Part shown: in pieces, positions 25,571-57,952 of the stretch
Layout of the letters: every line of letters begins with the position of its first letter
Numbering within the stretch: position 1 is the first letter of the stretch
Origin: a virus
Lineage: Duplodnaviria; Caudoviricetes
DNA: 64,000 nt
Strand: one strand, 5' to 3'
IMG/VR virus record: IMGVR_UViG_3300029288_000109
Span: 1 to 64,000 of that record
Position numbers and translations under genes: made by a program
The notes under the pieces: generated by a model
Database searches by the model: none
Seen by the model: the letters and a program-made list of their open reading frames with translations, nothing else
Told to the model about the DNA's origin: nothing

Positions 25571-25786
25571 ATGTTAAAAATTGGAGACAGAGTAAGGGTA
25601 CGACAATCAAGCATCCATACAGAACTCAGGGGTAAAACAGGAACGGTGCTAAGCATAAATCATCTTGAAAACGATATTAATGTGCTTATTGATGGAGTGC
25701 GCACAAACAGGTCAGACGGAACATATGGCTTCTATGCTAAAAATCTTGAACTGCTAAATAACTACAAACTTGAGGAAGATATATGA
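25571..25786 (+). CDS. EDI-tail protein 1, SH3/KOW-like
   Basis: KIGDRVRV...GKTGTV; ends YKLEEDI. Confidence 0.8.
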   Translation: MLKIGDRVRVRQSSIHTELRGKTGTVLSINHLENDINVLIDGVRTNRSDGTYGFYAKNLELLNNYKLEEDI

Positions 25787-26031
25787 GTATAAAAATCGGT
25801 GACCGAATCAAAATCGACGACTATACAAAAAAACGCCACTACTCAAATGACCCTGAATATGTTGGTGCAGAAGGTATTGTTCTGAATATATGTGGAAAAG
25901 TAGTATTTGTCGACCTTATAAAGAAACCAAGCGGGATAAATCTAAAAGAACTGACCGACGGTTCAGAATTCAAATTCAACATAGAAAATGTATTACCTGT
26001 AAAATCTTATGTGCTTGAAGAGGATGTATAA
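25783..26031 (+). CDS. EDI-tail protein 2, SH3/KOW-like
   Basis: KIGDRIKI...GAEGIV; ends YVLEEDV. Confidence 0.8.
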   Translation: MSIKIGDRIKIDDYTKKRHYSNDPEYVGAEGIVLNICGKVVFVDLIKKPSGINLKELTDGSEFKFNIENVLPVKSYVLEEDV

Positions 26032-26033
26032 AT

Positions 26034-26282
26034 ATGAAAATGCCACTTGATGTTGCTAAACAAATATATAATAGCGGCTGTATATTTAATCATACTATAG
26101 AATGTAGAAACTGTACATATGGTGATTCAGAAGTGATACCAGACAAACTATTCGGCAACAGATGTCATGTTGGTGTATGTGGTGTAATATATACACATAG
26201 AAACAGTAAACCATTAGAAGAGGTACTTGAAATGATTAAGCCGTGGACTAAACAACCATTCATACTGGACGAAGACATATGA
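26034..26282 (+). CDS. EDI-tail protein 3, Cys4 class
   Basis: C..CxxC..CG..PW; ends FILDEDI. Confidence 0.8.
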   Translation: MKMPLDVAKQIYNSGCIFNHTIECRNCTYGDSEVIPDKLFGNRCHVGVCGVIYTHRNSKPLEEVLEMIKPWTKQPFILDEDI

Positions 26283-26482
26283 AAATCGGCGACCGCGTTC
26301 GTATAAAAGATACATGCAACATACATCATCTAAGAAATAAAATGGGAACCATAAAAGGTTTTGCATATAACATAGCAAATGTTTTAGTAGATGGATATAA
26401 TTCAAGTAAAGACGACCGTACATGTGGAATATATAAAAGAAATCTAATAATAGCAAATATGGTAATTGATGAGGACATATGA
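26279..26482 (+). CDS. EDI-tail protein 4, SH3/KOW-like
   Basis: KIGDRVRI...NKMGTI; ends MVIDEDI. Confidence 0.8.
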   Translation: MKIGDRVRIKDTCNIHHLRNKMGTIKGFAYNIANVLVDGYNSSKDDRTCGIYKRNLIIANMVIDEDI

Positions 26483-26742
26483 TTAGAATAACCATGGAAG
26501 AATTTGAACGGTTGTGGAGTGGTAAAAATTGTCATGTACTTAAAAGAGTAGGAAATAAAACATGTTCTACTTGTCCATTTGGAGGAGATGGCGATGATAT
26601 ACCAAGACAACTTCGAGGTAGCTATAGTGGGCTCTGTGGTGTATTTTGTAAAAGTCGAGACCTGGGCGAGACAAGAGAACAGTGTTTAGCAAAAGTACGT
26701 CCATGGCTTGTAAATAACTATATATTTGAGGAAGATATATAA
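26479..26742 (+). CDS. EDI-tail protein 5, Cys4 class
   Basis: ITMEEF..LW, C..CxxC..CG..PW; ends YIFEEDI. Confidence 0.8.
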   Translation: MIRITMEEFERLWSGKNCHVLKRVGNKTCSTCPFGGDGDDIPRQLRGSYSGLCGVFCKSRDLGETREQCLAKVRPWLVNNYIFEEDI

Positions 26743-26984
26743 TGCTTACAAAAGAAGAGTTCAAAATATTGTGGACTACAAGTAAATGTTTAAGTTTTGA
26801 TTGCAATACATGTAAAGCTGGAATAAAATATACTCCACAACATATTAAAGATAAGTTTAAGAAACTATCTGGAAAGTCTGTTTCTTGTTGCGGAATGATG
26901 GAATGGTTCAAAACAGAACAATGGTCGATGGAGCAAGTATCTAACTTTCTGTTTGAAAAATACAGTATTGTAGAGGATATATGA
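26742..26984 (+). CDS. EDI-tail protein 6, Cys4 class
   Basis: LTKEEF..LW, C..CxxC..CG; ends YSIVEDI. Confidence 0.8.
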   Translation: MLTKEEFKILWTTSKCLSFDCNTCKAGIKYTPQHIKDKFKKLSGKSVSCCGMMEWFKTEQWSMEQVSNFLFEKYSIVEDI

Positions 26985-27235
26985 CATATATAACAATGGA
27001 AGAATTTAAAACAATATGGAGAGGCGGCTGCGTAAAAGGCGCACAGGAATGTAAAACATGTCGTGTTGGTGTACCATCAAACGACGACGCACCAAAACAC
27101 CTACGAGAGAATAAACATGGAATATGTGGAATCATTGTTCATCAAAAACATATGCAAGGTCTAGATAAGGCAATTGTATTAGAAATAATGAGACCGTGGA
27201 TTAAAAAGAACTATAAAGAGTACGAAGACATATAA
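26981..27235 (+). CDS. EDI-tail protein 7, Cys4 class
   Basis: ITMEEF..IW, C..CxxC..CG..PW; ends YKEYEDI. Confidence 0.8.
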   Translation: MTYITMEEFKTIWRGGCVKGAQECKTCRVGVPSNDDAPKHLRENKHGICGIIVHQKHMQGLDKAIVLEIMRPWIKKNYKEYEDI

Positions 27236-27263
27236 TTTGATACCCCCTAAAGGGGGTATCAAA
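27236..27263. repeat. intergenic hairpin inside the array
   Basis: TTTGATACCCCC taaa GGGGGTATCAAA; no downstream U-tract on either strand. Confidence 0.7.
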
Positions 27264-27292
27264 AAAATATTTCGCGGGGGGATAAACCCTAT

Positions 27293-27574
27293 ATGGAAAA
27301 GGTTATAAAATATAAGCCATATATAACAATAAAAGAGTTCAACCACCTATGGGAGAATGGTTCAGGAAACGGATTAAAGAGAGCTATATGTAATACAGGT
27401 CCTTCTCATTGTCTTGATTGTCCTCTTGGTGAACATGATGACTTCCCATCGTCTATTCATAGAGGTACTGGCCTCTGTGGTTGTATAGTATTAAGGAACA
27501 ACAGAATAACAAAGGGTGAGATGATAAAGCTGTTGAGCAAATGGATACAGAAGCCTGAATATGAAGATGTATAG
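27293..27574 (+). CDS. EDI-tail protein 8, Cys4 class
   Basis: ITIKEF..LW, C..CxxC..CG..KW; ends KPEYEDV. Confidence 0.8.
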   Translation: MEKVIKYKPYITIKEFNHLWENGSGNGLKRAICNTGPSHCLDCPLGEHDDFPSSIHRGTGLCGCIVLRNNRITKGEMIKLLSKWIQKPEYEDV

Positions 27575-27950
27575 TATAGAGGGAGTGAGGGGAAGACTTC
27601 TCCACCCCTATTTGGACACTGTTTGGACGTTATTTCGTACTTACCCACATCTGTTTAGACACTATATAGACCTTCCACCCCCTATATCCCTTATACTATT
27701 CTATCCTTTATATCATATACCGTATATCTTGTTTGGAGCCGCCGCCAAAAATTCATTTGAGACAAGGATAGGAGTCGCAGAGAGACACCGTACTGCGGGA
27801 TTACCAACTCTATCTAATACCTGCTATGAGGCCCATTAACCGGCCATAGAAGGTTGGCAGAACCTCCAATACCAGGAGTCTCCAAGAAAATTAGATATAG
27901 TGTCTCCCTTGTTTCAATCTGTATAGCCACCCAAAAAAAGGAGGTGCACC

Positions 27951-28811
27951 ATGATGAACGAGAATGGGCATTTCGATTTGCAGGACCATATATACCCCTG
28001 CGATGAACATGAAATGGAAATAGATACTAATCCTACCATAGACGATGTTATTGACTTCTTTGTGGGGATTAAAAATCAGATTAATGGGAGACCGCATCGT
28101 ATTGAGTTTCAGGAGCATCATCAAAGATATTATATAAACGGATATATCAGGTTTATTCAGCCGCCAAAAAATAAGGAGGATAACCAATGACAACCGTTAT
28201 AGCAATATGCTGGAAATGCGGTATGACGTTTCACAACCAGGATGAGATAGAATTATTATCTGTCATGGTTGATGGCAAACTTGTTTGCATGGATTGCGAC
28301 ATTAAAAGCAAATGGGAGGAGTTACACAACAATGCCTGATCCAGTCTTGATATGGGTAGCTATGGGAGGAGGTTATCCTCTTTATCACTTTGAAAGCATC
28401 GCTGAAGCCGCCAAATTTGTCGCTGACCACTCAAACGCTTATTCATGGTTTGTAGAAGATGGTATACGACTTAATAAAGGTACTATGCTAGTTCAGCTTT
28501 TTATAGGCTATAAAGACGGAAAATTAGTAAGATTCTTTAATGACGCAGAAAAAAACTTCTTTAAACACTGGTATTTAGACACACAAAAGAAAAAGGAGGA
28601 GAAACAAATGAAAAACAATAAAGTTACTACTGTTGCCGCGCCAGAAGAACCAAAGAACGACCAATGGATGAGTATATTGTGGACCCCAACAGATTCAGCA
28701 CCGTTAGAAATTATTGTTAAAAACAATATGAATTACAACAAAGGCATTAATTTAACCAAAGAACAAGCAATAATAGTAAAGAAAGCAATAGAAGCGTTTT
28801 TTGGAGACTAA
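27951..28811 (+). CDS. untagged hypothetical genes interrupting the array (27951-28190; 28332-28811 with internal start at 28608)
   Basis: GGAGG SDs precede each ATG. Confidence 0.55.
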
Positions 28812-29033
28812 ATGGAACCAAGAATCGGAGATAAGGTTTTTGTAAATCATAAATGCGAAATTCCTGATCTATGGAATAAGGTTGGTATTTTAAGAGAAAT
28901 AAGAAATTCACTTCATGCAGATCAAACCTTAAGAATATGTATTATATATATTGAAAAAGAAGATAGACATGAAGCAATATATTTAAGAAGCATTACCCCC
29001 GTAAAAAAACCATTAGAATTTGAGGATATTTAG
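28812..29033 (+). CDS. EDI-tail protein 9, SH3/KOW-like
   Basis: RIGDKVFV...NKVGIL; ends PLEFEDI. Confidence 0.8.
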   Translation: MEPRIGDKVFVNHKCEIPDLWNKVGILREIRNSLHADQTLRICIIYIEKEDRHEAIYLRSITPVKKPLEFEDI

Positions 29034-29038
29034 CCGCC

Positions 29039-29266
29039 ATGATAAATGTTGGAACAAAAATACGAATCAATGATAGCTATGATTCACGTCATTTTAAAAA
29101 CAAGGTTGGAACAATTGTTAAAATAAACGAATATTTTGATAATGGGACTAAAAATGAATATGAAGTTATATTTGACATAGAAGAAAACCTAGGAACATGT
29201 AGATATTACTTTCACGATAACGAATTTAAACTATTACATAATTTTAAGTTTGTGGAGGATATATAA
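29039..29266 (+). CDS. EDI-tail protein 10, SH3/KOW-like
   Basis: NVGTKIRI...NKVGTI; ends FKFVEDI. Confidence 0.8.
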   Translation: MINVGTKIRINDSYDSRHFKNKVGTIVKINEYFDNGTKNEYEVIFDIEENLGTCRYYFHDNEFKLLHNFKFVEDI

Positions 29267-29267
29267 T

Positions 29268-29474
29268 ATGATTAAAGTTGGCTCAAGAGTTATTATAAAC
29301 TCATCTACTGGTATAAGGTCACATATAGGAATGAAAGGAATTGTAACACGAGCCAATACTGGTATAGATATAAGCTTTTTTGAGGTCGCGTTTGGTGATA
29401 ATGATTCATTGGTGTTTCTAAAATCATCTCTTAGAGAAATAAAACCTGCTTTTACAATAGAAGAGGACATTTGA
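29268..29474 (+). CDS. EDI-tail protein 11, SH3/KOW-like
   Basis: KVGSRVII...GMKGIV; ends FTIEEDI; start moved to ATG 29268. Confidence 0.8.
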   Translation: MIKVGSRVIINSSTGIRSHIGMKGIVTRANTGIDISFFEVAFGDNDSLVFLKSSLREIKPAFTIEEDI

Positions 29475-29477
29475 CAT

Positions 29478-29672
29478 ATGTTAACAAAAGGAACAAGAAT
29501 TGTTGTTAATAAGAAATGCGATTTACAAACAATAAGAGGAAAAAAAGGAACAATAGTAAGTATTATAAATAAAGGTTTTTTTACAATCAATCTTGACAAT
29601 GGAGAAAGTTTTAATATGTATCATTCTATTTTTGATAAAATAGAAAAATACGTACATGATGAGGATATATAA
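29478..29672 (+). CDS. EDI-tail protein 12, SH3/KOW-like
   Basis: TKGTRIVV...GKKGTI; ends YVHDEDI. Confidence 0.8.
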   Translation: MLTKGTRIVVNKKCDLQTIRGKKGTIVSIINKGFFTINLDNGESFNMYHSIFDKIEKYVHDEDI

Positions 29673-29785
29673 AAAGTCAACAAAAAATAGTTATTACTTG
29701 TTTAAAACTCAATAAAGACAACAAAAGATAGTAATATATAGTAGTACATAACAGATACATAGTATATACCATGAAGGAGAGTAAA

Positions 29786-30013
29786 ATGAGAAATCAAACC
29801 ATACTAGAAATAGAAGAATTATTTGATGGAGCATGTCCATTTATAACATTAGATAATCGTAATTGTGAAAAATGCAAATACGGGGAAAATAAAAAGATAA
29901 ATGGATATCTATGTTCATACATAAATGAGCACAGAGACGAAGGAATTGAATGGGTGAAAAAAACATTTCCAGAATTGTTTCCAAAAAAATTTAGTATAGA
30001 CGAGGATATATAA
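29786..30013 (+). CDS. EDI-tail protein 13, Cys4 class
   Basis: EIEELF..ACP..CxxC..C..FPELFP; ends FSIDEDI. Confidence 0.78.
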   Translation: MRNQTILEIEELFDGACPFITLDNRNCEKCKYGENKKINGYLCSYINEHRDEGIEWVKKTFPELFPKKFSIDEDI

Positions 30014-30234
30014 TGAGCCTTTCATCTGTAGTTTGTTTATCTTCAACAATTGGATGGGGACCAGATAATAGAGAAGCATTTATAAAGAAATGTCAGGAAA
30101 TTCAAAGTAAACAAAAACATATTATGGATGATGTTATATTTGACATATTTATTGATAATATAAATAATAAAGTAGATTGTAGAGATTATAAAGAATTTAA
30201 AAAGAACGTTGCAAAGGAAATTAATAACTTATGA
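30013..30234 (+). CDS. untagged hypothetical protein
   Basis: Coupled to both neighbours (TAATG, ATGA). Confidence 0.55.
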   Translation: MSLSSVVCLSSTIGWGPDNREAFIKKCQEIQSKQKHIMDDVIFDIFIDNINNKVDCRDYKEFKKNVAKEINNL

Positions 30235-30461
30235 AGTTTAGACTTGGTGATAAAGTAAGGATTACGCAAGGAAACGTAAAAACACCAGTACTGGTTTCAA
30301 TTTATGAAGGAGCAACTGGAATAATAGTAAAACTTGTTCCTATGTATAAACAATATGATGTAAAAATAAAATGTAAGGATAATAATATTAATGGAATCTT
30401 TACATTTAATGAAAAGTTTGTAGTCGCTCAAAATACTTTTAAACTTGAAGAGGACATATGA
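30231..30461 (+). CDS. EDI-tail protein 14, SH3/KOW-like
   Basis: RLGDKVRI...GATGII; ends FKLEEDI. Confidence 0.8.
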   Translation: MKFRLGDKVRITQGNVKTPVLVSIYEGATGIIVKLVPMYKQYDVKIKCKDNNINGIFTFNEKFVVAQNTFKLEEDI

Positions 30462-30655
30462 ACATTGGTGACTTGGTAATTATTAATAACAGTTGTATGT
30501 GTACTAATTTAATAGGTAAAAAGTTCAGGATAAATAGTTTTCCATCAGATTCAGAAATTGGTTTATCCAAATCAGATAAACATGCACATATTGGAACTGT
30601 ATATAGAACATCAGTTAATAAAATTAATCATTTTAGACACGAGGAGGATATATGA
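30458..30655 (+). CDS. EDI-tail protein 15, SH3/KOW-like
   Basis: NIGDLVII...GKKFRI; ends FRHEEDI. Confidence 0.8.
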   Translation: MNIGDLVIINNSCMCTNLIGKKFRINSFPSDSEIGLSKSDKHAHIGTVYRTSVNKINHFRHEEDI

Positions 30656-30873
30656 CAACAGAAGAAGAAATAGAGAAATACTTGTTTAAATCTAAATGCC
30701 CAATTCCTGAAAACAAACGTAATTGTAATCCATCATGTAAATATTCAAACAAGGATAGAACAACCACCATTTGTAATGATATATATCATATGAAGCTTAA
30801 AGGCTTAGCCGCTGTAAAAAAGAAATATCCTCATTTATTTCCAAATAGATTCAAGTTTGATGAAGACATATGA
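30652..30873 (+). CDS. EDI-tail protein 16, Cys4 class
   Basis: TEEEI..YLF..KCP..CxxxC..C..YPHLFP; ends FKFDEDI. Confidence 0.78.
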   Translation: MTTEEEIEKYLFKSKCPIPENKRNCNPSCKYSNKDRTTTICNDIYHMKLKGLAAVKKKYPHLFPNRFKFDEDI

Positions 30874-31118
30874 AAATTTCAGTTAAAAAAGACCTCAAAA
30901 TAGATATTGAAGAAGTAAAAAACTTTATTTTAACTGGGTCATGTAGAGGACAAATATGTGATAATTGCAATTTATATAATCAACAAGACGGTTATGATGA
31001 AAATACTTTTGATATATGTTCTTTTATAATGAAATTTAAAAAAAGAATGAGCCTTGATGAAATAGTTGCTGCAATAATGAAAACACAATACAAATTTATA
31101 ATTGATGAAGATATATAA
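30870..31118 (+). CDS. EDI-tail protein 17, Cys4 class
   Basis: DIEEV..FI..C..CxxC..C; ends FIIDEDI. Confidence 0.78.
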   Translation: MKISVKKDLKIDIEEVKNFILTGSCRGQICDNCNLYNQQDGYDENTFDICSFIMKFKKRMSLDEIVAAIMKTQYKFIIDEDI

Positions 31119-37908: not shown

Positions 37909-38658
37909 ATGTATAAAATAGGATTTGAATATGAAGGAGTAATAACAAACACAGAAACAGGTGTAATAACACGATGGTCAAACATACAACAAGGAATAAG
38001 AGACAAAATTAAAGAAAGAGCCCCAAGAGGATATTTGATAGACCCTGTAGACAATTATGATTGTCTCGCAGAAGTTCGTGTATTACTCGATGCCAATGAA
38101 AATTATGAACCAGAATATATGCTTTTTGCATTATTCAGAAATATCGTAGCAGTAAATAATGCATTTTTGCAAAATGGTTATACTATTATATGGGGAGAAA
38201 AACTAATCCCAAAAGAATTACATAATCAAATCATTGGCTCAACACTGGACAAAGAAAAATGTAAAAACGAAAAAGAAACATTTACGTTTAATGGTCATTA
38301 TGGTGTTATGCGATTTCATAATAACCCCAAAGATTTTTATAGAGGCGGCGGACTACACATTAATATTTCTGGAATAGATAAGAGAGATTATTTTGCATTT
38401 ATTATAAACATGCATCGATATATGCAGTCATGGTTAGGCCATAAATGGCATTCTCATTATCGTGACAATATTTTATGGCGCGACAAAACAATAAATAATA
38501 TTCCAGTTATTGAATATATGAGTTTTGGTTTAAACATTGGTGCTCTAAACGACAAAAGAGAATTCATAGAAATGTATAACTTTGTAAAACACCAGTTTCA
38601 CTGGGCACAAACATTAATCCAAACAGTAAAAAAGTATACAAAGGAGAATAAACAATGA
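37909..38658 (+). CDS. COOH-NH2 ligase (glutamine-synthetase-like fold)
   Basis: IGFEYE, D..AEVR, GGGLHINIS, VIEY motifs in the expected order. Confidence 0.6.
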   Translation: MYKIGFEYEGVITNTETGVITRWSNIQQGIRDKIKERAPRGYLIDPVDNYDCLAEVRVLLDANENYEPEYMLFALFRNIVAVNNAFLQNGYTIIWGEKLIPKELHNQIIGSTLDKEKCKNEKETFTFNGHYGVMRFHNNPKDFYRGGGLHINISGIDKRDYFAFIINMHRYMQSWLGHKWHSHYRDNILWRDKTINNIPVIEYMSFGLNIGALNDKREFIEMYNFVKHQFHWAQTLIQTVKKYTKENKQ

Positions 38659-40130
38659 AATATATTTATGAATTAAAAATAGAAGAAGTAAAAGATGAAG
38701 TTATTGCAACCGAAATAAGAGTATTTTCAACACAAAAAATGGCTGAAAATTATGTAGAAGAAAATTGGGGTGTTAATAGATGGACAATAAATATGTTATT
38801 TCCTTGGCCATCACAATGGTGTATTTTTACAAAGAATTTTAAATTCACAATTACAAAACTTCCAATAGATAAAAAGGACTAATATGATAACCCAAAAAGA
38901 AACGATTTTCGTCCCCAAAAGAATTAGAAAAACACTAAATAAACTATCGGCAAAAGCCTATCATGGAATGTGGGCATCATTTTCACATGGTTCAAATATA
39001 CTAAATATTATCGCTATAATAAAAGAGAGAGAAAAAGATCCACAATATATACCAAATAAAAAAGTATATAAAATATATGAAGCAAGAGCCAATGGTAATC
39101 AATTGGAAATAAAAGTTACAAGCGAACATCACAATGTAGACGATGCTTATAGAGCATTTGATTTAGTTGATAGACAACAAACTATAGAAGAAAGTAGTGA
39201 TCAATATGACAACTAAATTAATGTCTCCAAAAGAATACAGAATAGCACGTAAACAACAAATAGTTGCAAGATTTAAAGAACTATATCCTAATGGATGCTT
39301 TATCATAAGTAAACAATTTTATACTAATGAATCACGTAGATGCCCTATATGGGATCATAAAGACCATACAGGAGAAACTCATCGTATAAGACGTGGTGTG
39401 CCACTTGAAATAGTACATGAATATACCCTATGTCTTGATTTCAATACTGGTGCTATTGGATACGAAAAAGGAATAGAATACATTAGAAATAAAAGTTTTA
39501 CTGTATTTGAAAATGGTGAAATACAAAATAATGCATCATTTAATAGATTACACGGTATTATAAGACGATACAGTTCACTTGAAAAATTCTTGGCCGCTAC
39601 CAAAAAATATGCTGTGCCACAAATAATGATTGATACATTCATGGGAAAGTACAACGAGGAGAACAAACAATGACAGCACGAGAAGCATTAGCATTTCTGG
39701 ACAAAATTAAAGCATGTGATGATATTAATATTCAAATGGAAGGATATTATTCAAATAAAATAATAAAAATTGAATTTATTAATAATGATACTAGAAAAAA
39801 TATTGTCTTAGTTCCGCATTCTGGTATGGGTGACGCAGAAATAAGAATTGAAAAGGAAATATAACAATGAAATGCATGGTATGTGGAAAACTTCTTGATT
39901 GCAATCAAAGTTATAAGCTTACAATCGAGGAAGAACACTGGATGCATAAAAATTGCCGCCATAATATTACATTTTCATTATGCGAAGAGCACAAAAAGCT
40001 TTTTGAAAGCTATATTGATTTTGCAGGAGATGCTTTCTATAAGGAATATTGTGAGGCAGCGCAAAAAGCAACCGATAAAATCCTTTTTCAAAATACCATA
40101 GACGGAATAATGGATAATACACGAATTTAA
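38655..40130 (+). CDS. five small hypothetical genes
   Basis: Coupled ORFs 38655-38882, 38884-39216, 39197-39673, 39670-39864, 39867-40130. Confidence 0.55.
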
Positions 40131-40374
40131 AATTGGAGAAGTAGTTATTTTATCAAATCTAACCTCTTTTAGTGTAAGTATTAGACCGCACCTAAAAGGT
40201 GCTATTGTAAGAATAATAGAATTCTATGGTGATAAAGATTGTAGAGTAGAATTTAAAACAAAAGATATACCAGGAAAACTTGGAAAACAATATTATGGAC
40301 GTAATGGAACATGGGGTGTAATGATGCAAGAATTGACAAAGAAATATAATTTTAAAATTGAGGAGGATATATAA
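40114..40374 (+). CDS. EDI-tail protein 18, SH3/KOW-like; absent from the ORF track, non-canonical start
   Basis: Hand translation IIHEFKIGEVVILSN...HLKGAIVRIIEF...CRVEF...KYNFKIEEDI-stop; TAATG overlap with the next ORF. Confidence 0.72.
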   Translation: MIHEFKIGEVVILSNLTSFSVSIRPHLKGAIVRIIEFYGDKDCRVEFKTKDIPGKLGKQYYGRNGTWGVMMQELTKKYNFKIEEDI

Positions 40375-40521
40375 TGGAACCAGAATTTGAAAAAGAAGTA
40401 AACAACCTGCTTATTTTAGAAAAAACAAATTTTAAAGGACATAAAACAAAAGAATTGTTTGCAACCGTTAAAAGATTTAGAATGGCAATGAAAGAAAAAA
40501 CTATAGGAGAGGCCCAATACC

Positions 40522-40953
40522 ATGATTTCAATAATCGCAACTTTTAAACCAACTTCGGACGAAACAAAAATAAAAGAAATAAAATCAGAAATAGCTCATT
40601 TAATCGAATTAAAAGGTACAACTTGCTGGGATATAGTTAAAGACGAAACACAAATTATAGGAATGAGAATTTCATTACATAGTTATGAACTTAAAGAAAT
40701 AATGAAAATATATAAAACAATTCAAAATACAAAAATAAACGAAGTATCATTAGAGATAGTTCAACATGGCGCTTTTAACGAAGAAAATACATCTTCAAAA
40801 GATATTGAATCATTTATAATAAAAGTATCAAAAATGCGTCAAGTTATTGATGCCATGATTATAACAATAAGTGATTTTAATATAAATGATTTTGATAAAC
40901 ATTTTAAAACTTTTGAAAATACTTCAAAATCAATATTAAATCAAGTGATATAA
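40522..40953 (+). CDS. hypothetical protein heading the ligase cluster
   Basis: GGAGAGG SD; abuts the amidoligase gene. Confidence 0.6.
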   Translation: MISIIATFKPTSDETKIKEIKSEIAHLIELKGTTCWDIVKDETQIIGMRISLHSYELKEIMKIYKTIQNTKINEVSLEIVQHGAFNEENTSSKDIESFIIKVSKMRQVIDAMIITISDFNINDFDKHFKTFENTSKSILNQVI

Positions 40954-40954
40954 A

Positions 40955-42217
40955 ATGAAAATCGGAATAGAAATGGAATTTAATCGTGTAGTAGACAAAT
41001 CATCTGAATGTCAAATCTATACATGTGATAATTGCGGAGAAATAATTTATTCCAAAGAAAAAGACATATTATGCAAATGCGGAAATAAGATAGAAAAAAC
41101 AAAATGCATCCACCATTGTGCAACGTGTAAAACAAAAGAAAGAACTCCACAAATCATTAAAGAGTGCCATTCCTGTGTAGATTATCTGCCTTGTAAAAAA
41201 CAAGTATTTAATAAAAACCTTTGTATGTTATGCAAAAATTGTGTTACAAAATGTAACAAATATGAAAATACATGGGAATTTATGGAAAAATATCCACTAT
41301 GTGGATTTATAGGAAATGCAACATGTAAAATATGTGATTTCAATTCTGAAAAATATTGTTCTTATTGTAATCACATATGTACATCATGCGCAGTAATGTG
41401 TTCAAAAATATCATGTCCACCATGTAAGCTATTTGGCAAATGCGACAAATCTGATAACGATTATGATATAATAATAAATTCTTCTAAAAAACAAAAAGGC
41501 ATAATGAATGTAGTAAGATGTGGATACGAACATACTAATCAAAATACAGACCTTATCTTAAAAAGTGATGAGTCATGTGGACTTGAGCTTGTTACTCCGC
41601 CAATGGAACTAAGCAATATAGATAAAATAGAAACGTTTCTTGAAAAAATTAAAATTAGGGGATTACACATAGATAGGGCATGTGGTTTGCATGTTCATTT
41701 TTCAAGAGACAATTTCACTTTGTTTGAAACAGCAAAAGTTATTGGATACTATTATCTTATTCAAAATATATTATTTAAAATGATGCCAGAAACAAGAAAG
41801 AGTAATCAATACTGTTCAAAAATAAATGTTGATAAAATGAAAAATCTATTTTGCGCAAATATAAAATCAAACGATAAACTAACTTCAAATAATATACTCT
41901 CTTTTATACATGATATAAGTTGTTCTCATTACACGTTTATGAACCTTTCTCAACATCATGCAACATTTGAGCTAAGGATACACGAAGGAACAATGCAATT
42001 TGAAAAGATTAAACAATGGGTAATTTTTAATTATTTTCTTATAAATGCATTTAGAAACATAAGTAATGATGAGTTCGGAAAAAATATGGATACAAGCTCA
42101 ATGAAATTGAAAGATTTAATTAACATAATTGAACAAGCACCAGTTATTAAAAATATTAAAAAGAAAGATATAATAAAATATATATATAAAAGAATAATAG
42201 AAAATGGGAGCGTATAA
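40955..42217 (+). CDS. amidoligase (Amidoligase_2-like COOH-NH2 ligase) with large Cys-rich insert
   Basis: IGIEMEF, DESCGLELVTPP, CGLHVHF, TFELRIHEGT motifs. Confidence 0.85.
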   Translation: MKIGIEMEFNRVVDKSSECQIYTCDNCGEIIYSKEKDILCKCGNKIEKTKCIHHCATCKTKERTPQIIKECHSCVDYLPCKKQVFNKNLCMLCKNCVTKCNKYENTWEFMEKYPLCGFIGNATCKICDFNSEKYCSYCNHICTSCAVMCSKISCPPCKLFGKCDKSDNDYDIIINSSKKQKGIMNVVRCGYEHTNQNTDLILKSDESCGLELVTPPMELSNIDKIETFLEKIKIRGLHIDRACGLHVHFSRDNFTLFETAKVIGYYYLIQNILFKMMPETRKSNQYCSKINVDKMKNLFCANIKSNDKLTSNNILSFIHDISCSHYTFMNLSQHHATFELRIHEGTMQFEKIKQWVIFNYFLINAFRNISNDEFGKNMDTSSMKLKDLINIIEQAPVIKNIKKKDIIKYIYKRIIENGSV

Positions 42218-43083
42218 TGATTGCTATAATAGCAAATAAATTTGGAAGAATTACATGTAAAAGACTTTCTGAACAAAGCGATATAAAACTTATAAAAACA
42301 CATGTATTAACAAAACAGTTCAGAACACAAGATTTTACAAATGTAACTGGTGTTATACGGTTTGGAACAATAAAAACCCTACCAGGAAGTTTTGCTGAAG
42401 TAAATAATATATCAGCAATATCAAAAGCTATAGATAAAATAAAAACCAGAACCATTCTCCAAGAACATGAGATAAGAACACCAAAAACGTGGCAAGTGTC
42501 AGAAGTAGAAGATATAAATAGTTTGCCACTTCCGCTTATAGCACAACCGCGATTTCATTTTGGTGGAAATGGTCTTGAATTTATTGATACAATAGAATCT
42601 ATAAATAACTATATTAATAACCACGATTGTTCTAATTCGTATTTTAGTGAATATATTAACAAAAAACGAGAATTAAGAGTATTCGTAACACACGGAATGT
42701 GTCTTACTGTATTTGAAAAAATACCACCAGAAAATACTAATTGTACTGTATGGAACAGGCATATATCAAATTGCAAATTTGTACCAATAAGACAAAACGA
42801 ATGGCCAAAATTTACAGTTAAAAAATGTATAAAAGCTGTTGAAGTGCTTGGATTAGATTTTGGAGCAGTAGATGTAATGATAGGAAGAGAAAATACACCT
42901 AAATATTATATCTTAGAAATAAATACAAGTCCAGGACTAACTGGAACTTATAGCCAAACAAAAATGGCTAGTTATTTCAAATGGCTTAAAAATTATTTTA
43001 ATGAACATAATTCATTTCCTCCACACAAAAATACAGAAATGGCAGAACGAATTTCAGATATTGTTTTTAAGGAAAACACATGA
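42217..43083 (+). CDS. ATP-grasp peptide ligase (RimK-like)
   Basis: IRTPKT, SEYINKKRELRVFV, LGLDFGAVDV, ILEINTSPGL. Confidence 0.88.
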   Translation: MIAIIANKFGRITCKRLSEQSDIKLIKTHVLTKQFRTQDFTNVTGVIRFGTIKTLPGSFAEVNNISAISKAIDKIKTRTILQEHEIRTPKTWQVSEVEDINSLPLPLIAQPRFHFGGNGLEFIDTIESINNYINNHDCSNSYFSEYINKKRELRVFVTHGMCLTVFEKIPPENTNCTVWNRHISNCKFVPIRQNEWPKFTVKKCIKAVEVLGLDFGAVDVMIGRENTPKYYILEINTSPGLTGTYSQTKMASYFKWLKNYFNEHNSFPPHKNTEMAERISDIVFKENT

Positions 43084-43799
43084 GTATACAAAGTTCAACA
43101 ACAAATACTGCACAATACGATATAGAATATGAAGATGTCTTAGCTGCTGCAAGATGGGCAGCAATAGTATCTGGACAAAAAAATTCTGTTTTTGTTATTG
43201 GAACAGGTGCTATGGATGCCATCTTCAGGAAGAACACTGATAATAAATTTAAGATAAAAAACGCAGAATCAGAAATTTTGTTTATATCAGAAATAATTTA
43301 TCCTTTATTTAATAACCTTCTACGTTTGATAAAGGATAAAAAAACAAACGATCCAGAAATTTTATACTATATTGATAAATCACCAAATGTTGGAGAAATT
43401 AAACAAATACCACACAATGTTAAAGATAGAAAAACAATTACTAAGTTCATCTATGAAGAAACTAAAAAATATTTTGTTTCAATGAATATAGATAATCCGT
43501 TGACATCAAGATTCATCTCAGCAATACCATCAACACAGATAGATGTAAACGAGTTATGGGAACCAGATGAGATATCAACCTTCTGGTCAGACAAAAGTGG
43601 ATGCGAAAATGAAGACGTAGCAGCATTTATACTTATGATATCTTCTATTAATCGCGAGTTTAAAACTAAATTTGTATATGAAAAAAAAGAACTTGAAAAA
43701 ATAATAAAGTTATGTGAACAAAGCTCGTTTAAAAAATACAATTCAAAAATAGAAGAAATAATTAAAAATCTAACAGGAGACAAAATAGAAAATGTGTAA
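43080..43799 (+). CDS. hypothetical protein in the ligase cluster
   Basis: Overlap-coupled on both sides. Confidence 0.6.
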   Translation: MSIQSSTTNTAQYDIEYEDVLAAARWAAIVSGQKNSVFVIGTGAMDAIFRKNTDNKFKIKNAESEILFISEIIYPLFNNLLRLIKDKKTNDPEILYYIDKSPNVGEIKQIPHNVKDRKTITKFIYEETKKYFVSMNIDNPLTSRFISAIPSTQIDVNELWEPDEISTFWSDKSGCENEDVAAFILMISSINREFKTKFVYEKKELEKIIKLCEQSSFKKYNSKIEEIIKNLTGDKIENV

Positions 43800-44988
43800 A
43801 ATTTCTGCATTTACTGTACATGATACAAAAAGCATAACAATTAAGAAACAACAACAAACACTGGCGCGACTATTTCTTTTTAATTCTATTATTAAGCTAT
43901 ATAGGGAAGGTGGAAATTCACACGCAACTGGATTTTGTATAAGATATATTGAAAATAATAAAACTAAATATATTTCATATAAAGCACCTATAGATGGTGA
44001 AGAATTTGTTCTTTTACCAATATTTGACGATATAATGAATAATAATATGGATATAAAATCCATAATAGTACATGCAAGACTAGCAACAACTGGTTCAAAT
44101 AGCATTAATGACAATAATCATCCTGTTACAGATATAAATAACCAAGTGTTTCTTGTTCATAATGGAGTTGTTTCAAATCATACGGAACTATTTAACAAAC
44201 TCGAAATAAAAAGACGAGCAAGTGTTGATTCTGAAATACTCCCAAACTTAATGGCATTAAAAGACTACCATAATGATACAACTATATTTGCAATGCCTGT
44301 AGGATGGATAATAGCTGCTGCATTGGATAGGCGCTTTAAAGACGAATTAGTTATTATAAATAATGTTGATCAAAGTGGATATTTTGTTATTAATGATGAA
44401 AAATTACTAGTAACAATGATGTCAACAAAAAGCGCATTTACTAGCTTAAAAACTATAATAGAAAATACAAATATAAAATTTGAAGGATTAAATATCATAG
44501 TATTACCACGCGCCACAACAATTATAAAATTAAATGGAGAAATAAAAACAATAGATATAAAAAAAGAAACAAAAAATGAATTGACTAAATCATCAACTGT
44601 TCCAAAAGTTAAATATGATAAAAAAGGTATTTATTCTGTATTATTTCGTATGCATAATTATGTTTTTGATAAAAACAACGCCGCCCCACCAGTAGATGAA
44701 AAATTTACTGTAATAGATACCATAGTCGCTGGAATGTTAAAAGGCGATATGTTTGAAGAATTTTATAAAAAATATTCAACAACTGGAATAGTAACTGGAT
44801 GGCTTTCAAATTATATACATGTTTTTTCAGGAGTTGAAAGAACACATATTGATGTTCACGCTCCATTTTTATATTCTATTGAAAAAGTAGCTGAAGAAGT
44901 ATTTGGAAGTCAGGTAGAAAAAACTAACGATATAATGAATACTGAATTTAAAGAAAAATGCGAACAATTTGTAAAGGATAACAAATGA
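43792..44988 (+). CDS. class II (Ntn) glutamine amidotransferase
   Basis: Cys2, HARLATTG, NNHP, VHNGVV, VDSE. Confidence 0.88.
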   Translation: MCKISAFTVHDTKSITIKKQQQTLARLFLFNSIIKLYREGGNSHATGFCIRYIENNKTKYISYKAPIDGEEFVLLPIFDDIMNNNMDIKSIIVHARLATTGSNSINDNNHPVTDINNQVFLVHNGVVSNHTELFNKLEIKRRASVDSEILPNLMALKDYHNDTTIFAMPVGWIIAAALDRRFKDELVIINNVDQSGYFVINDEKLLVTMMSTKSAFTSLKTIIENTNIKFEGLNIIVLPRATTIIKLNGEIKTIDIKKETKNELTKSSTVPKVKYDKKGIYSVLFRMHNYVFDKNNAAPPVDEKFTVIDTIVAGMLKGDMFEEFYKKYSTTGIVTGWLSNYIHVFSGVERTHIDVHAPFLYSIEKVAEEVFGSQVEKTNDIMNTEFKEKCEQFVKDNK

Positions 44989-45446
44989 CAGCAATAATGG
45001 TAAACGAATTAAAAGAAGAAAATAAAGAATTATATGATTTTACATTAAGTACAGTATTACAAAAATATATTCCAATACATAAATCAAATATTACAGATAC
45101 AAAAATAATTAAAAAGAAAGTTAATAAAATAATTCGATGGATGTTTGAAAATAAGGAAATTAACGCTTCTGGAAATCATCTTTTGATAAGACATGAAATA
45201 CCATTTATAACAATAAATGAACTAGATCAATTTTTAAAAGGAAAGAAAACAGATAGTATAAGAAATGGTTCATTTAGTACAAAAAATAATACAATTACAA
45301 TTGATATGTTTCTTATAAAAAATTCTTTCTTGTTCATTGCTGCCGTATGTAATGAATATATAGCGGCATTATATTTGTATGGATTATATGGTGAAATCAA
45401 TTTCAATCATCCGATTGAAATAATATTAACGGAGGAAACAGAATGA
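44985..45446 (+). CDS. hypothetical protein in the ligase cluster
   Basis: ATGA overlaps on both sides. Confidence 0.6.
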   Translation: MTAIMVNELKEENKELYDFTLSTVLQKYIPIHKSNITDTKIIKKKVNKIIRWMFENKEINASGNHLLIRHEIPFITINELDQFLKGKKTDSIRNGSFSTKNNTITIDMFLIKNSFLFIAAVCNEYIAALYLYGLYGEINFNHPIEIILTEETE

Positions 45447-46636
45447 ATTCTGGCGATATAAAAAGCTTTCTTCAGAAACTAAAAAGAGGAAACGAAACAG
45501 AAAAAGTGTTTCGTATATGGAAAAACGAAAATACAGAAGAAACAAATACGACAACTACTAAGTATGAAAATTTGCTTAAAAATATTAAAGCAACTACAAT
45601 TAGTATAATAATGTTATTTGAAGCGGATAATTCCTCTCACAAATGCGATAATTGTAAAGAAGATTGTAATCACATATATGATTGCAAAAATATTAATATA
45701 TTAGAATGCACAAAAAAGACATGCATTATAAAAGACGAAAAAAACATATGTTCTCCACCGTCTTGTTCAAAAGTAAAATTTAATACTACTGTATGTAAAA
45801 AATGCGAGGACAAAGTTGTTGATTGTGTAAGATGTTTTTTAGAAAATAAAAATGTAGAAACGATTTTCAAACCATATGTTGATGAAACATGTGACAAACC
45901 ATTTAAAACAGCAGCAAAAGGTCCTTCTGGACTTCTTTTGATTGAAACAAATCCAATAAAAGTGGATATACAAATTATTCATAAAATAGATGGAATTATT
46001 AATCTTATTACAACAAAGTTTCCTCTTAAACAAGTAGGAGAAACTAGGATAGCATTTAATCTTAGTAAAGATTTTGATGAAAATATAATTAATAATACAA
46101 TAGTAATACTGAATATGCTTATTCCATCATTAAATTTAGCTATTAAAAACGAAAAAAATAATGCAAATATTAAAAGAAGCAATATCAATATACAAAGGCC
46201 ATCAACTGAAACAGAATTTTGTGGAATAAACACCGACACTTTCTTAACGCAAAATATTACTTACACAGACAATAAATTAAACATACCTATTTATGGAATA
46301 AATATCAATGGTTCAGAACTATATATAATCAAAAAAATAATAATGGAGATATTGACAATAGCAACATACATTGCAAAAGAAAATAGAATATTAAACATCC
46401 TAAGTAATAATATGATTAATGAAATGATATCTATATGGTCATTGTCACAAATGAGTACAAAAAATATGCATAAAAATATAAGTTCAAAGATAAATAGGGA
46501 ACAAGTTGCCTTAAATAACATATTTAGTGGATTTTTACCAGATTATTTAACAAAACTTATTTTAAAAGAATTTAAACATCCTGATGGCGTAAAAGAAGAA
46601 ATTAAAAATATTTATAACAAAGGTGAATGTTCATAA
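45443..46636 (+). CDS. probable degenerate amidoligase paralogue with Cys-rich insert
   Basis: Same layout as 40955 and 47675 (ISIIMLF, Cys tract, LIETNPI, GETRIAF) but GxExE and HxH residues are missing. Confidence 0.5.
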   Translation: MNSGDIKSFLQKLKRGNETEKVFRIWKNENTEETNTTTTKYENLLKNIKATTISIIMLFEADNSSHKCDNCKEDCNHIYDCKNINILECTKKTCIIKDEKNICSPPSCSKVKFNTTVCKKCEDKVVDCVRCFLENKNVETIFKPYVDETCDKPFKTAAKGPSGLLLIETNPIKVDIQIIHKIDGIINLITTKFPLKQVGETRIAFNLSKDFDENIINNTIVILNMLIPSLNLAIKNEKNNANIKRSNINIQRPSTETEFCGINTDTFLTQNITYTDNKLNIPIYGININGSELYIIKKIIMEILTIATYIAKENRILNILSNNMINEMISIWSLSQMSTKNMHKNISSKINREQVALNNIFSGFLPDYLTKLILKEFKHPDGVKEEIKNIYNKGECS

Positions 46637-47700
46637 TGTGTGGAATTCTTGGACTTACATTTCTTGACGATTCTCATAAAGTTAAAGAAAACAATAATCT
46701 TATAAAATTGCTTATGGCTTGTTTTGAAATAGGAATGAGAGAAACAGCAATCCGTGGTTATGATGCGGCTGGAGTAGCATATATAACTGGACATGAAAAT
46801 TCATTTAAAACAAATATTTTTAAAAGCAAAAAGAACGCATGGAAAGCTACTATATCTGAAGAGTGGATTGAGACTATACAATCAATGAGAAAAAATTCTG
46901 ACGCTAAAGATGTGCATATGCATTGGATTGGTCATTGTCGTAAAATGACAGAGGGTAAAACAGATAATAATGAAAATAATCACCCCCTTGAAATTGACAA
47001 TAGGCTTATCATGGTGCATAATGGGTCTGTTAAAGATTTTAAAGAAATTATAAAGAAAGATACATCAAATTTTATAAAAAACACTATGCCTGGTGAAGTT
47101 GATTCAGGTGTGTTCGGAACGCTTGCTCTAAAATATCTAAAAGATAACAAAACAGACCTTCAAAATGGAATAAAGGAAGCTTTTGAAAACAAAGACCTGT
47201 ATATTCCATTAGAAGGCGCAGTAGTAATTCTAGATAAACTTGATGCTAACAAAATATTTATGATAAGGACATATGATAGACCGCTATATGTATCAAGCAT
47301 AAGCCAAATAAATGCTATAATTTATGCATCTCAATCAGAGTTTATTTATAATTTTATTTATAATGTTTGTGGTCTTGCAAATGTATTTAATGCAGACCCA
47401 GGATTAATGAACTATTCATTGCCACAAGAATTGTTAACTGATAAAATCTTTAAAATAGATAGGAATGAACATATGTCAAAAAAGGTCTTTTCGTTTATAG
47501 ATACAAAAATAAGAAAAAGTTTTTGGAATGAATATGTTTATTCATCTACTTCGTTATATGATGGAGAAAAAGTATACAACGGATCGGAATATTACTGGGA
47601 AAAAAATAAAAACAAGGTAATTAATGCAACAATAGTAGTTCCAGAAGAAAATATATTCATGCAAATGGCGGAGGATGAAAATGAAGTTGGAATTCACTAA
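46636..47700 (+). CDS. second class II glutamine amidotransferase
   Basis: MCGILG start at 46636 (TAATG overlap), RGYDAAG, GHCRKMT, NNHP, VHNG, VDS. Confidence 0.9.
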   Translation: MCGILGLTFLDDSHKVKENNNLIKLLMACFEIGMRETAIRGYDAAGVAYITGHENSFKTNIFKSKKNAWKATISEEWIETIQSMRKNSDAKDVHMHWIGHCRKMTEGKTDNNENNHPLEIDNRLIMVHNGSVKDFKEIIKKDTSNFIKNTMPGEVDSGVFGTLALKYLKDNKTDLQNGIKEAFENKDLYIPLEGAVVILDKLDANKIFMIRTYDRPLYVSSISQINAIIYASQSEFIYNFIYNVCGLANVFNADPGLMNYSLPQELLTDKIFKIDRNEHMSKKVFSFIDTKIRKSFWNEYVYSSTSLYDGEKVYNGSEYYWEKNKNKVINATIVVPEENIFMQMAEDENEVGIH

Positions 47701-56989: not shown

Positions 56990-57952
56990 ATGGATACAAA
57001 AAATGTAATGTATCTGCCAAGTGGCCGTATATTTCTTTTAGATTGTGGTGGTTATACAATTGAATCTACAGAAATGAGAGACGTAAGTGTTGATGGTAAA
57101 CTTCACGAGGCAGTAAGAGAAGCCACCGATCCACACATTATATGGAAACATCTTGTGCCATATAAAGATAAATGGCTTTTAACCGTTTCTACACAAAAAG
57201 GCTGTACGCATAATTGTAAATTTTGTGATGTAGCAGATTTGCCCTTCAAAGGTAATCTCACACAATATGAAATAGAATATCAAATCTGGAATTTACTTAG
57301 GTCAACTCCCTATGTTACCGAATGTGCCAAGGCAAAAATAGGATTTGCAAGAATGGGTGAACCATCGTGGAACCTACACAATGTACTTGGTGCCATGTGT
57401 AATCTAGGAAGAATTGCTAATGAGGCTTCAGTCAAAAGCTTCAGATGGCTTCCGTGTTTCAATACTATTCTACCAAGAAAAGCAGACTGTATATATGATG
57501 TATTAGATATTAAAGAAGGGGTATTTAATGGTTTTCTACATTTTCAAATAAGTTGCAACTCTACGGATGAAGAAAAACGAAGAGAACTTTTCGGCGGAGC
57601 CGACGTTCTTACTCTTGAAGAAATTATTACAAAGATAAACAAACGCAAAATAACCAACAGAACTGTTACTCTTAACTTTATTGTTATGAAAGATGTAGAA
57701 GTTGATGTACAGAAACTTAAAAAATTGGGTCTCAATGGTAATAAGTTTGCAGTTAAACTAATCCCACTAAATCGCACTATTAAAGCAGAAGAAAACAATC
57801 TTGAAACATATGCCAATTATTCTAATTATGATGATCTTTTGCGGCTTAAAGATTCTTTTGAAAAAGAAGGAGTCCCAGTTGTAGTAGACGCTATTGCAAG
57901 ATGCGAGGAGGCTGGACTATGTTGCGGACAGTTAGCCCAAATATTTCAATAA
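56990..57952 (+). CDS. RlmN/Cfr-like radical SAM protein
   Basis: VSTQKGCTHNCKFC, GNLT..EI..QI, MGEP, C-terminal CGQL. Confidence 0.82.
   Translation: MDTKNVMYLPSGRIFLLDCGGYTIESTEMRDVSVDGKLHEAVREATDPHIIWKHLVPYKDKWLLTVSTQKGCTHNCKFCDVADLPFKGNLTQYEIEYQIWNLLRSTPYVTECAKAKIGFARMGEPSWNLHNVLGAMCNLGRIANEASVKSFRWLPCFNTILPRKADCIYDVLDIKEGVFNGFLHFQISCNSTDEEKRRELFGGADVLTLEEIITKINKRKITNRTVTLNFIVMKDVEVDVQKLKKLGLNGNKFAVKLIPLNRTIKAEENNLETYANYSNYDDLLRLKDSFEKEGVPVVVDAIARCEEAGLCCGQLAQIFQ

Follow-up and report, generated by a model that had tools for sequence, protein, structure and literature searches.

A gene array with a common C-terminal ending

Record IMGVR_UViG_3300029288_000109 of IMG/VR is a phage sequence of 103,320 bp, and its bases 1 to 64000, a stretch of 64,000 nucleotides that we call the window, carry an array of small genes between positions 25571 and 31118. 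An earlier note, made from the letters of the window, had listed 17 open reading frames (ORFs) in this array and quoted the C-terminal tails of their products; all 17 are present at those positions on the plus strand, each with exactly the tail quoted. Every one of them finishes E-D-[IV]-stop, and so does an eighteenth member farther downstream, at 40111..40374. Residues are numbered from the C terminus, with -1 as the last residue before the stop codon, and the tail statistics given below cover all 18 members. The bodies in front of the tails belong to two families, a KOW/SH3-like family A and a helical four-Cys family B.

The array opens with member 1 (25571..25786, family A, tail NNYKLEEDI), whose stop codon overlaps the next start as ATGA, and proceeds through members 2 (25783..26031, family A, KSYVLEEDV), 3 (26034..26282, family B, QPFILDEDI), 4 (26279..26482, family A, ANMVIDEDI), 5 (26479..26742, family B, NNYIFEEDI), 6 (26742..26984, family B, EKYSIVEDI), 7 (26981..27235, family B, KNYKEYEDI), and 8 (27293..27574, family B, QKPEYEDV). 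It resumes with members 9 (28812..29033, family A, KKPLEFEDI), 10 (29039..29266, family A, HNFKFVEDI), 11 (29268..29474, family A, PAFTIEEDI), and 12 (29478..29672, family A, EKYVHDEDI), the last of which is separated from the next gene by ~100 nt. Member 11 is counted from the ATG at 29268, while the ORF list starts it at the TTG at 29250. The remaining members are 13 (29771..30013, family B, KKFSIDEDI; alternative start at 29786), 14 (30231..30461, family A, NTFKLEEDI), 15 (30458..30655, family A, NHFRHEEDI), 16 (30652..30873, family B, NRFKFDEDI), and 17 (30870..31118, family B, YKFIIDEDI). All lie on the plus strand.

Member 18 (40111..40374, plus strand, YNFKIEEDI) is a family A-like open frame inside a translationally coupled ligase operon. 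It has no ATG, GTG, or TTG start; the frame, open from just past the TAA at 40108-40110, shares its first bases with the upstream gene, whose stop codon is at 40128-40130, and the start candidates of the frame are limited to ATA at 40114 or 40117 and ATT at 40132, one base past the upstream stop. Reinitiation or an assembly indel is possible at this position.

Rarity and composition of the tail

Counting the ED[IV]-stop ending against background, as the earlier note had proposed, gave 18 tails in the phage's own genome against 0.10 expected by chance from amino acid composition among 189 ORFs, which confirms that the shared ending is real and far above chance. When all six frames of the whole 103,320-bp genome were scanned for ORFs of at least 40 residues, ED[IV]-stop occurred outside the array ORFs and member 18 only at 89428-89898 on the minus strand. 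This ORF, beyond the window, encodes an endolysin-like M15-family peptidase of 156 residues with the end YPKWVEDI. The match may have arisen by chance, or the tail may have a 19th carrier here, with an enzyme as its third type of body. A near miss is found at 35988-36203, where a 71-residue ORF with a body in neither family A nor family B ends FLKTIEEDT, with Thr in place of Ile or Val.

The tail is most uniform at its end. Asp at -2 and Glu at -3 are present in all 18 members, and -1 is Ile in 16 and Val in 2. Position -4 is Glu (7 members), Asp (6), Val (2), Tyr (2), or Phe (1), and position -5 is Ile (6), Leu (4), Phe (3), Glu (3), or His (2). Farther upstream, -7 is Phe in nine and Tyr in six members, with Met, Lys, and Pro once each, and -8 and -9 are mainly Asn or Lys. 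The consensus therefore extends over about nine residues, [NK]-[NK]-[FY]-x-hydrophobic-[DE]-E-D-[IV]-COOH. The bodies are neutral to basic, with a net charge of 0 to +6 in 16 of the 18, and the tail adds -3 to -4.

Two unrelated bodies

Family A has 10 members (nine of the array plus member 18), and family B has 8. An alignment of nine family A sequences is coherent, with the pattern IGDRVxI...GKxGxI and no conserved Cys. Its AlphaFold model is a five-strand KOW/SH3-like barrel with a mean predicted local distance difference test score (pLDDT) of 88.6, and the best PDB matches in Foldseek are ribosomal protein L24/L26 and the KOW domains of Spt5 and NusG. The eight family B sequences also align coherently, around four conserved Cys (C...CxxC...C), and are modeled as three helices plus a small knuckle (pLDDT 76.8); no fold match was found for this model in PDB Foldseek, a VIA wide search, or BFVD. 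When the two families were compared by hhalign, the alignment was limited to the last 10 columns, "i..f..eEDI". The claim of the earlier note that the bodies have two unrelated folds is thus well founded.

Within each family, paralogs are only 18 to 42% identical, from which we conclude that the array is old; E-D is nonetheless invariant, and -1 is Ile or Val in 18 of 18. The tail is modeled at low pLDDT and without secondary structure on both folds, which fits a linear docking motif.

Codon usage in the tail

For 14 of the 18 tails, the start of another gene is no more than a few bases from the stop codon, often as ATGA, and the sequence GAGGA of the Glu and Asp codons lies 3 to 6 nt upstream. 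GAGGA is present in 12 of these 14 tails with a coupled follower versus 1 of the 4 without (Fisher p = 0.044), and a GGAG-like purine run 3 to 9 nt before an overlapping or abutting start, taken as the mark of a Shine-Dalgarno (SD) site and translational coupling, likewise occurs in 12 of the 14. The tail does double as the SD site of the next gene, as had been proposed.

The Glu codons separate the two functions. In the bodies of the tail genes, Glu is encoded by GAA in 84% of cases and by GAG in 16%. Of the 14 tails with a coupled follower, 10 have GAG at -3 (p = 6e-6 versus body usage); of the 4 without, 1 does, and the other three have the genome-typical GAA. The Asp codons at -2 (GAT in 11, GAC in 7) are used as in the bodies (p = 0.62). 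Because the GAG enrichment is limited to tails with a coupled follower, GAGGA is an add-on to a residue that is kept regardless.

The tail is retained where no coupled gene comes next, at the ends at 27235, 27574, and 29672. Where no gene follows, E-D-[IV] is encoded with GAA and GAC codons: member 7, which runs into a hairpin at 27236-27263, has GAA GAC ATA, and member 8 has GAA GAT GTA. Conversely, two tails that do have a follower contain no GAGG at all, those ending at 26282 (member 3, GAC GAA GAC) and at 30873 (member 16, GAT GAA GAC). The residues themselves also exceed what an SD site asks for: GAGGAN would be equally or better served by Glu at -2, yet Asp alone occurs; of the 14 residues that NNA-TGA allows at -1, none but Ile and Val is used; and the -7 aromatic and the Asn or Lys at -8 and -9 fall outside the SD site. 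About 45 other tightly coupled junctions of the same genome have unrelated C termini.

Because tails without a follower use GAA and GAC, because Asp and Ile/Val are not forced by the nucleotide signal, and because ~45 coupled junctions lack the tail, selection is seen to act on the peptide, and these data support a tail kept at the protein level with an SD function overlaid. The earlier note had reached this view from codon variation in the tail (GAA/GAG at -3, GAT/GAC at -2), the use of all three stop codons (TGA 8, TAA 8, TAG 2), the persistence of the tail without a close follower and, after member 17, before a gene with its own GGAGGA, and the Phe or Tyr at -7 beyond the SD site; each of these observations was borne out, and the codon statistics, the invariant Asp, and the unlike junctions now add to them. 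Read-through or recoding of TGA was rejected, as the frame beyond the TGA stops at once.

Relatives and an analogous contig

Neither blastn and tblastn searches of GenBank phages nor a terminase query of IMG/VR returned relatives of the phage. Word-indexed profile searches with families A and B found the same phage only, and when 1.84 billion representatives of ~15 billion proteins were searched exhaustively with a hidden Markov model of family B, the matches were its 8 own members and two spurious repeat proteins. The phage is represented by three near-identical contigs; the two that were fetched, both from JGI sample 3300037067, are 99.7 to 100% identical.

We also scanned for a DNA pattern of two GARGAYATATGA copies one small gene apart, designed to find E-D-I ends. 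Viral contigs of IMG/VR gave 0 matches at a gap of 180-210, 5 loci at 211-241, one of which (on a 262-kb contig) was informative, and 2 loci at 242-272, neither bearing two tails. Metagenome contigs gave 50 loci, mainly tandem repeats or SD sites plus ATG in other frames, and no relative of the phage. Many of the metagenome matches are tandem repeats of 75- to 120-nt units with GAGGACATATGA, or microsatellite-like DNA, and not phage gene arrays. Judging from the metagenome results, the string is frequent as DNA, and most of its occurrences do not code for the tail.

The informative contig, IMGVR_UViG_3300005259_000074 (262,470 bp, GC 49%, classed as a provirus), is unrelated to the phage and has its own abundant tail. 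Of its 452 greedy gene calls, 61 finish in E-[ED]-[ILVM] and 103 in a looser pattern, hydrophobic-[ED]-x-hydrophobic, which makes 13 to 23% of the genes tail bearing. The tail consensus reads A(-10)..hydrophobic(-8)..K(-5)-[LMI](-4)-E-[ED]-[LI]. Many carriers come from a six-Cys small-protein family (45 matches), and others lack Cys or are up to 402 residues long; hhalign of family B against this Cys-rich family gave a probability of 0.3%, so relatedness was not shown. Tail genes are dense at 31 to 96 kb and 253 to 258 kb, and the commonest C-terminal tripeptides are EEL, EEI, EDI, and EDL. The -3 codons are unbiased (GAG 32, GAA 29).

This contig has a diverged relative, the 14,670-bp JGI contig 3300033121 Ga0364571_10996. 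In 39 syntenic ortholog pairs with a mean identity of 51%, K-hydrophobic-[ED]-x-hydrophobic is kept, and at 44 of 142 identical tail residues the codons differ. The tail of the 262-kb lineage is also kept at the protein level, and the comparison among relatives on which the earlier note had staked its reading thus comes out in favor of the peptide in another lineage. Together, the codon pattern and the analogy with the 262-kb contig support the protein-level reading. The smaller contig consists of ~40 consecutive genes with 4-nt overlaps, encoding proteins of 63 to 105 residues with six to eight Cys and ends of the form K-[LMI]-E-x-[IL]; it is syntenic with the 262-kb contig at 35 to 86% identity, with the tail class kept and -2 freely variable.

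Genes common to the two tail-bearing genomes encode RNA ligase, ThyX, RecA-like, deaminase, dUTPase, DnaB, glycosyltransferase, terminase, and radical-SAM-like proteins, and these are ordinary phage functions. The radical-SAM-like protein of the window (56990-57952) belongs to phrog_24834, with Atlas clusters partly annotated Radical_SAM, and its homologue in the 262-kb contig (44592-45482) lies amid a tail-rich, Cys-rich gene region. As a candidate reader of the tail this protein was dropped, being a widespread phage family with no link to tails.

Genomic setting and the ligase cluster

The genome is that of an uncultured tailed phage; its terminase and portal genes are found at 6 to 9.5 kb, on the minus strand. 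GC skew changes sign at ~22 to 24 kb, and a long plus-strand block follows that contains replication, nucleotide, and RNA-repair genes. The array stands at the head of this rightward block, which is probably expressed early or in the middle of infection. A scan for promoters and terminators gave background level only.

Farther along the plus strand lies an expanded carboxylate-amine ligase cluster (37909..49270), which we treat as context and as no more than a candidate reader of the tail. It includes an Amidoligase_2 gene (40955-42217), an ATP-grasp gene of the RimK/MptN/LysX type (42217-43083), class II amidotransferases at 43792-44988 and 46627-47700, and further ligase-like genes. The ATP-grasp protein scores 62.7 bits against MptN, 47.9 against the RimK family, and 36.4 against LysX, all far below curated cutoffs (143 bits for the RimK family, 276 for LysX). 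The module is common in phages: the ATP-grasp is present in 301 phage records, among them phiEco32-like, LUZ24-like, and crAss-like phages (PMC3890496), and relatives of the amidoligase in 44. In this phage the module is expanded, and its Amidoligase_2 has a Cys-rich insert of ~170 residues. The crAss-like phage cr108_1 has the same ligase gene set.

A proposed docking motif and its alternatives

The analysis itself shows the motif and that it is restricted to these genes, the presence of two folds among its carriers, its disorder in the models, the constraint on the peptide, and the overlaid SD site. The explanation that we tentatively favor, at slightly less than an even chance, is that the tail is a flexible C-terminal docking motif through which one partner handles 18 variable small binding domains. 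The ending is a short linear motif, kept by selection on the peptide, and its 18 carriers are mostly basic proteins that consist of a single domain of either fold and diverged long ago. Docking would be noncovalent, with the terminal carboxylate and the Ile or Val side chain held in a pocket, the Glu-Asp pair facing a basic rim, and the upstream aromatic adding affinity, much as PDZ class III domains, the TPR "carboxylate clamp," or the readers of the SSB tip bind their ligands. All 18 bodies would in this way be brought to, or handled by, one common host or phage partner. The single reader, the mode of binding, and the adaptor-like role are the parts of this explanation that we infer.

Several points weigh against it. 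The phage is a singleton in the collections searched, so conservation of the tail across species cannot be shown. None of the phage proteins scanned with Pfam or PHROGs showed a PDZ, TPR, or protease domain, and no reader was found. Three members have positions -5 and -4 in reverse, acidic before hydrophobic, and two lack the -7 aromatic, so that a strict pocket model may be too rigid. The motif of the 262-kb contig differs in register, with a hydrophobic residue at -4 and a variable -2 in its relative, and by its spacing that tail is probably helical; it is not identical to the tail of the array and may be a different system. Finally, the tails may owe their similarity to common origin, by duplication or recombination within the array; such an origin does not explain why the tail was retained.

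Among the alternatives, the suggestion that the peptide is incidental to a nucleotide element, either an SD site with an overlapping start or a junction for shuffling cassettes, draws on the GAGGA and GAG enrichment in tails with followers and on the scans, in which GARGAYATATGA appeared elsewhere in phage and metagenome DNA as an SD site plus ATG in frames other than E-D-I, with no tail-ending ORF of at least 40 residues at 2 of the 5 viral loci (gap 211-241) and at most of the 50 metagenome loci. The codon analysis largely refutes it: the tail is encoded with GAA and GAC where no gene follows, two tails with followers lack GAGG, an SD site leaves Asp at -2, Ile/Val at -1, and positions -7 to -9 unexplained, and other coupled junctions are tail-less. 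The tail nucleotides are, moreover, too variable to serve as recombination homology, and we regard a nucleotide-only origin as highly improbable. We think just as little of the idea, one of those listed in the earlier note, that the tail targets proteins into the procapsid, in the manner of the T4 internal-protein signal or encapsulin cargo peptides. For HK97-fold shells it is known that variable small proteins can share a short targeting peptide (bioRxiv 10.1101/2021.03.18.436031), but the array sits in a block of replication and nucleotide metabolism genes, on the strand opposite the portal and terminase genes and 16 to 20 kb from them, and no link to a prohead protease was found. An acidic tail could instead act in cis, folding back on its basic body to mask a binding surface (autoinhibition) without any common partner. 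The basic or neutral bodies against a tail charge of -3 to -4 fit such a role, and the acidic C-terminal tails of SSB, T4 gp32, and T7 gp2.5 also work in cis. Nevertheless, the models leave the tail undocked on either body, at low pLDDT, and the order E-D-[IV], the aliphatic end, and the -7 aromatic, the same on two folds, exceed what charge masking needs, which makes this very unlikely.

Two further alternatives, both improbable, concern what a reader might do to the proteins. If the tail were a degron or timer, a host or phage protease or unfoldase would recognize all 18 proteins by it and remove them jointly at one fixed point of the infection. It is well established that AAA+ proteases read C-terminal degrons such as ssrA-type tags, the models predict an exposed, flexible C-terminal tail on many otherwise unrelated proteins, and a place at the head of the rightward block suits proteins needed briefly. 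Known bacterial C-terminal degrons are, however, mainly nonpolar, unlike the invariant Glu-Asp, and a protease gene was not found among the phage proteins scanned; we consider this role rather doubtful. The tail could also be a covalent handle, an attachment or recognition site for the phage's own ligase cluster, whose amidoligases are related in fold to PafA, with the proteins being modified, or serving as LysW-like carriers or Pup-like modifiers. Member 18 lies within the coupled ligase operon, 580 nt upstream of Amidoligase_2; ligases and tail proteins are both expanded in this genome; and the ATP-grasp is closest to alpha-L-glutamate ligases acting on acidic C termini or carboxylates, where LysX loads substrate on the C-terminal Glu of LysW (PMC12998189) and RimK extends the acidic C terminus of S6 (PMC10375531). 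An Amidoligase_2 gene of the 262-kb contig (156261-157100; no relatives of this amidoligase were found in IMG/VR) comes directly after three tail-bearing genes, although this adjacency is weak evidence because 13 to 23% of the genes there bear a tail. Against a covalent role, 17 of the 18 genes lie 10 to 15 kb from the cluster, the last residue is Ile or Val, unlike the Glu of RimK, LysX, TTL, or Pup substrates and modifiers, the ATP-grasp scores are all far under their cutoffs, and at three inspected loci of this widespread module (cr108_1, Bacillus phage 035JT001, and Clostridioides phage AR1086-1) no C-terminal tail is shared among genes. The link between the tail and the ligase cluster is weak, and we judge a covalent role to be unlikely, if worth keeping in mind.

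If the docking explanation holds and one reader serves all 18 proteins, a single peptide could be pulled down, deleted, or transplanted, which would give a handle on "dark matter" genes, and the identity of the reader would reveal toward which host or phage machine the small proteins are directed. The 262-kb contig seems to follow the same logic with a tail of its own. It is possible, if doubtful, that both exemplify a strategy general among large phages and so far undescribed, by which a lineage puts its own short C-terminal label on dozens of unrelated small nonstructural proteins for a single reader, here perhaps the amide-ligase cluster. A survey of C-terminal tags genome by genome could sort orphan phage genes into functional groups, and a short transferable tag for docking or ligation is potentially a useful tool.

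Comparison with known systems

The bacterial SSB tip, an acidic run with a hydrophobic end on a flexible linker behind a nucleic-acid-binding domain, reads D-D-D-I-P-F, and T7 gp2.5 and gp4 share an acidic tail ending in Phe, so that in T7 one acidic tail stands on two unrelated folds that both dock on one partner. PDZ class III ligands follow the pattern x-[DE]-x-hydrophobic-COOH. The tail of the array resembles these in kind, as it does EEVD-TPR, SspB, and LysW-LysX, and it is a member of none. The statement in the earlier note that no described system is like this one therefore stands in part: as a kind, such systems are known (the SSB tip, T7 gp2.5/gp4, EEVD-TPR, and LysW-LysX), whereas in the literature we found no described array of tail-sharing genes of this sort in phage early regions.

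With the SSB and T7 tails, the array shares a flexible acidic tail that is separable from the body, a hydrophobic end with a free carboxylate, and basic bodies. It differs in its end, which is E-D-I/V and not I-P-F or D-F, in its KOW-like and four-Cys bodies, which are neither OB folds nor helicases, and in having 18 carriers in one array. The likeness to PDZ class III ligands is one of sequence pattern only, with Glu at -3 and Ile/Val at -1 (PDZ positions -2 and 0) in 18 of 18. Through EEVD, likewise an acidic end, chaperones with no relation to one another dock on the same TPR proteins. PDZ and TPR systems are, in contrast, mainly eukaryotic or periplasmic, and no PDZ or TPR protein is present among the phage proteins scanned. 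SspB-type adaptors similarly combine a small recognition domain, followed by a flexible linker, with a short C-terminal docking peptide, which binds ClpX in the case of SspB; their sequences are unrelated to those of the array, and SspB is one protein and not an array.

The systems with ligases offer partial parallels. As in LysW-LysX (PMC12998189), there are very small proteins with an acidic C-terminal tail, a Cys-rich family (family B), and an ATP-grasp of the RimK/LysX superfamily in the genome. In LysW, however, the attachment Glu is at the very end (PMC12998189), in an end of the E-D-W-G-E type, with its side-chain carboxyl as the site used, whereas here Ile or Val occupies that place in 18 of 18 and Glu is at -3; the zinc-binding body of LysW is acidic, whereas the bodies here are neutral or basic, with no conserved Cys in family A. 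LysW was not among the matches listed by two PDB-wide fold searches with family B. Unlike a LysX that adjoins lysW, the ATP-grasp at 42217-43083 is near member 18 only, with 17 of the 18 genes 10 to 15 kb off, and it scores 36 bits where the LysX cutoff is 276. RimK-S6 (PMC10375531) provides an ATP-grasp that reads and extends an acidic protein C terminus, and the phage ATP-grasp scores 47.9 bits on the RimK family model, under the 143-bit cutoff; S6 is a single substrate ending Glu-Glu, unlike E-D-[IV]. Pup is disordered, has a G-G-Q/E end, and is attached by a PafA-type ligase, whereas the bodies of the array are predicted with confidence to be folded and have no G-G-[QE] end.

T4 internal proteins and encapsulin cargo also place one short peptide on variable small proteins, with one machine handling the group (bioRxiv 10.1101/2021.03.18.436031). 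The T4 signal is N-terminal, is cleaved by the prohead protease, and belongs to late genes, unlike a C-terminal motif in a rightward nonstructural block. The cargo-loading peptides of encapsulins differ in sequence, and the genomic position of the array argues against late, capsid-linked expression.

Other genes in and around the array

Pfam and PHROGs gave no significant family for members 1 to 10, the tail-less genes among them, or most of their neighbors, and an Rfam scan of the window gave no match. The interval 27236-27950 splits the array in two, with the hairpin at 27236-27263 (12-bp stem) immediately 3' of member 7; the ~380 nt that follow member 8 are comparatively rich in GC, lack a convincing gene, and match nothing in Rfam. 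Three tail-less genes on the plus strand then interrupt the array (27951..28811), encoding proteins of 79 residues, 50 residues with CxxC...CxxC, and ~158 residues, none with a family match, and a tail-less gene for a 73-residue protein, also without a family match, stands within the array at 30013..30234 (plus strand). Just downstream of the array, at 31767-32177 and 33442-33846, are two orphan paralogs of 135 residues that are 29% identical (pairwise E = 6e-7). Both begin MC[IL]D and finish VVVVK-x-[MI]-K-I-[LV], and they represent another duplicated family in this region.

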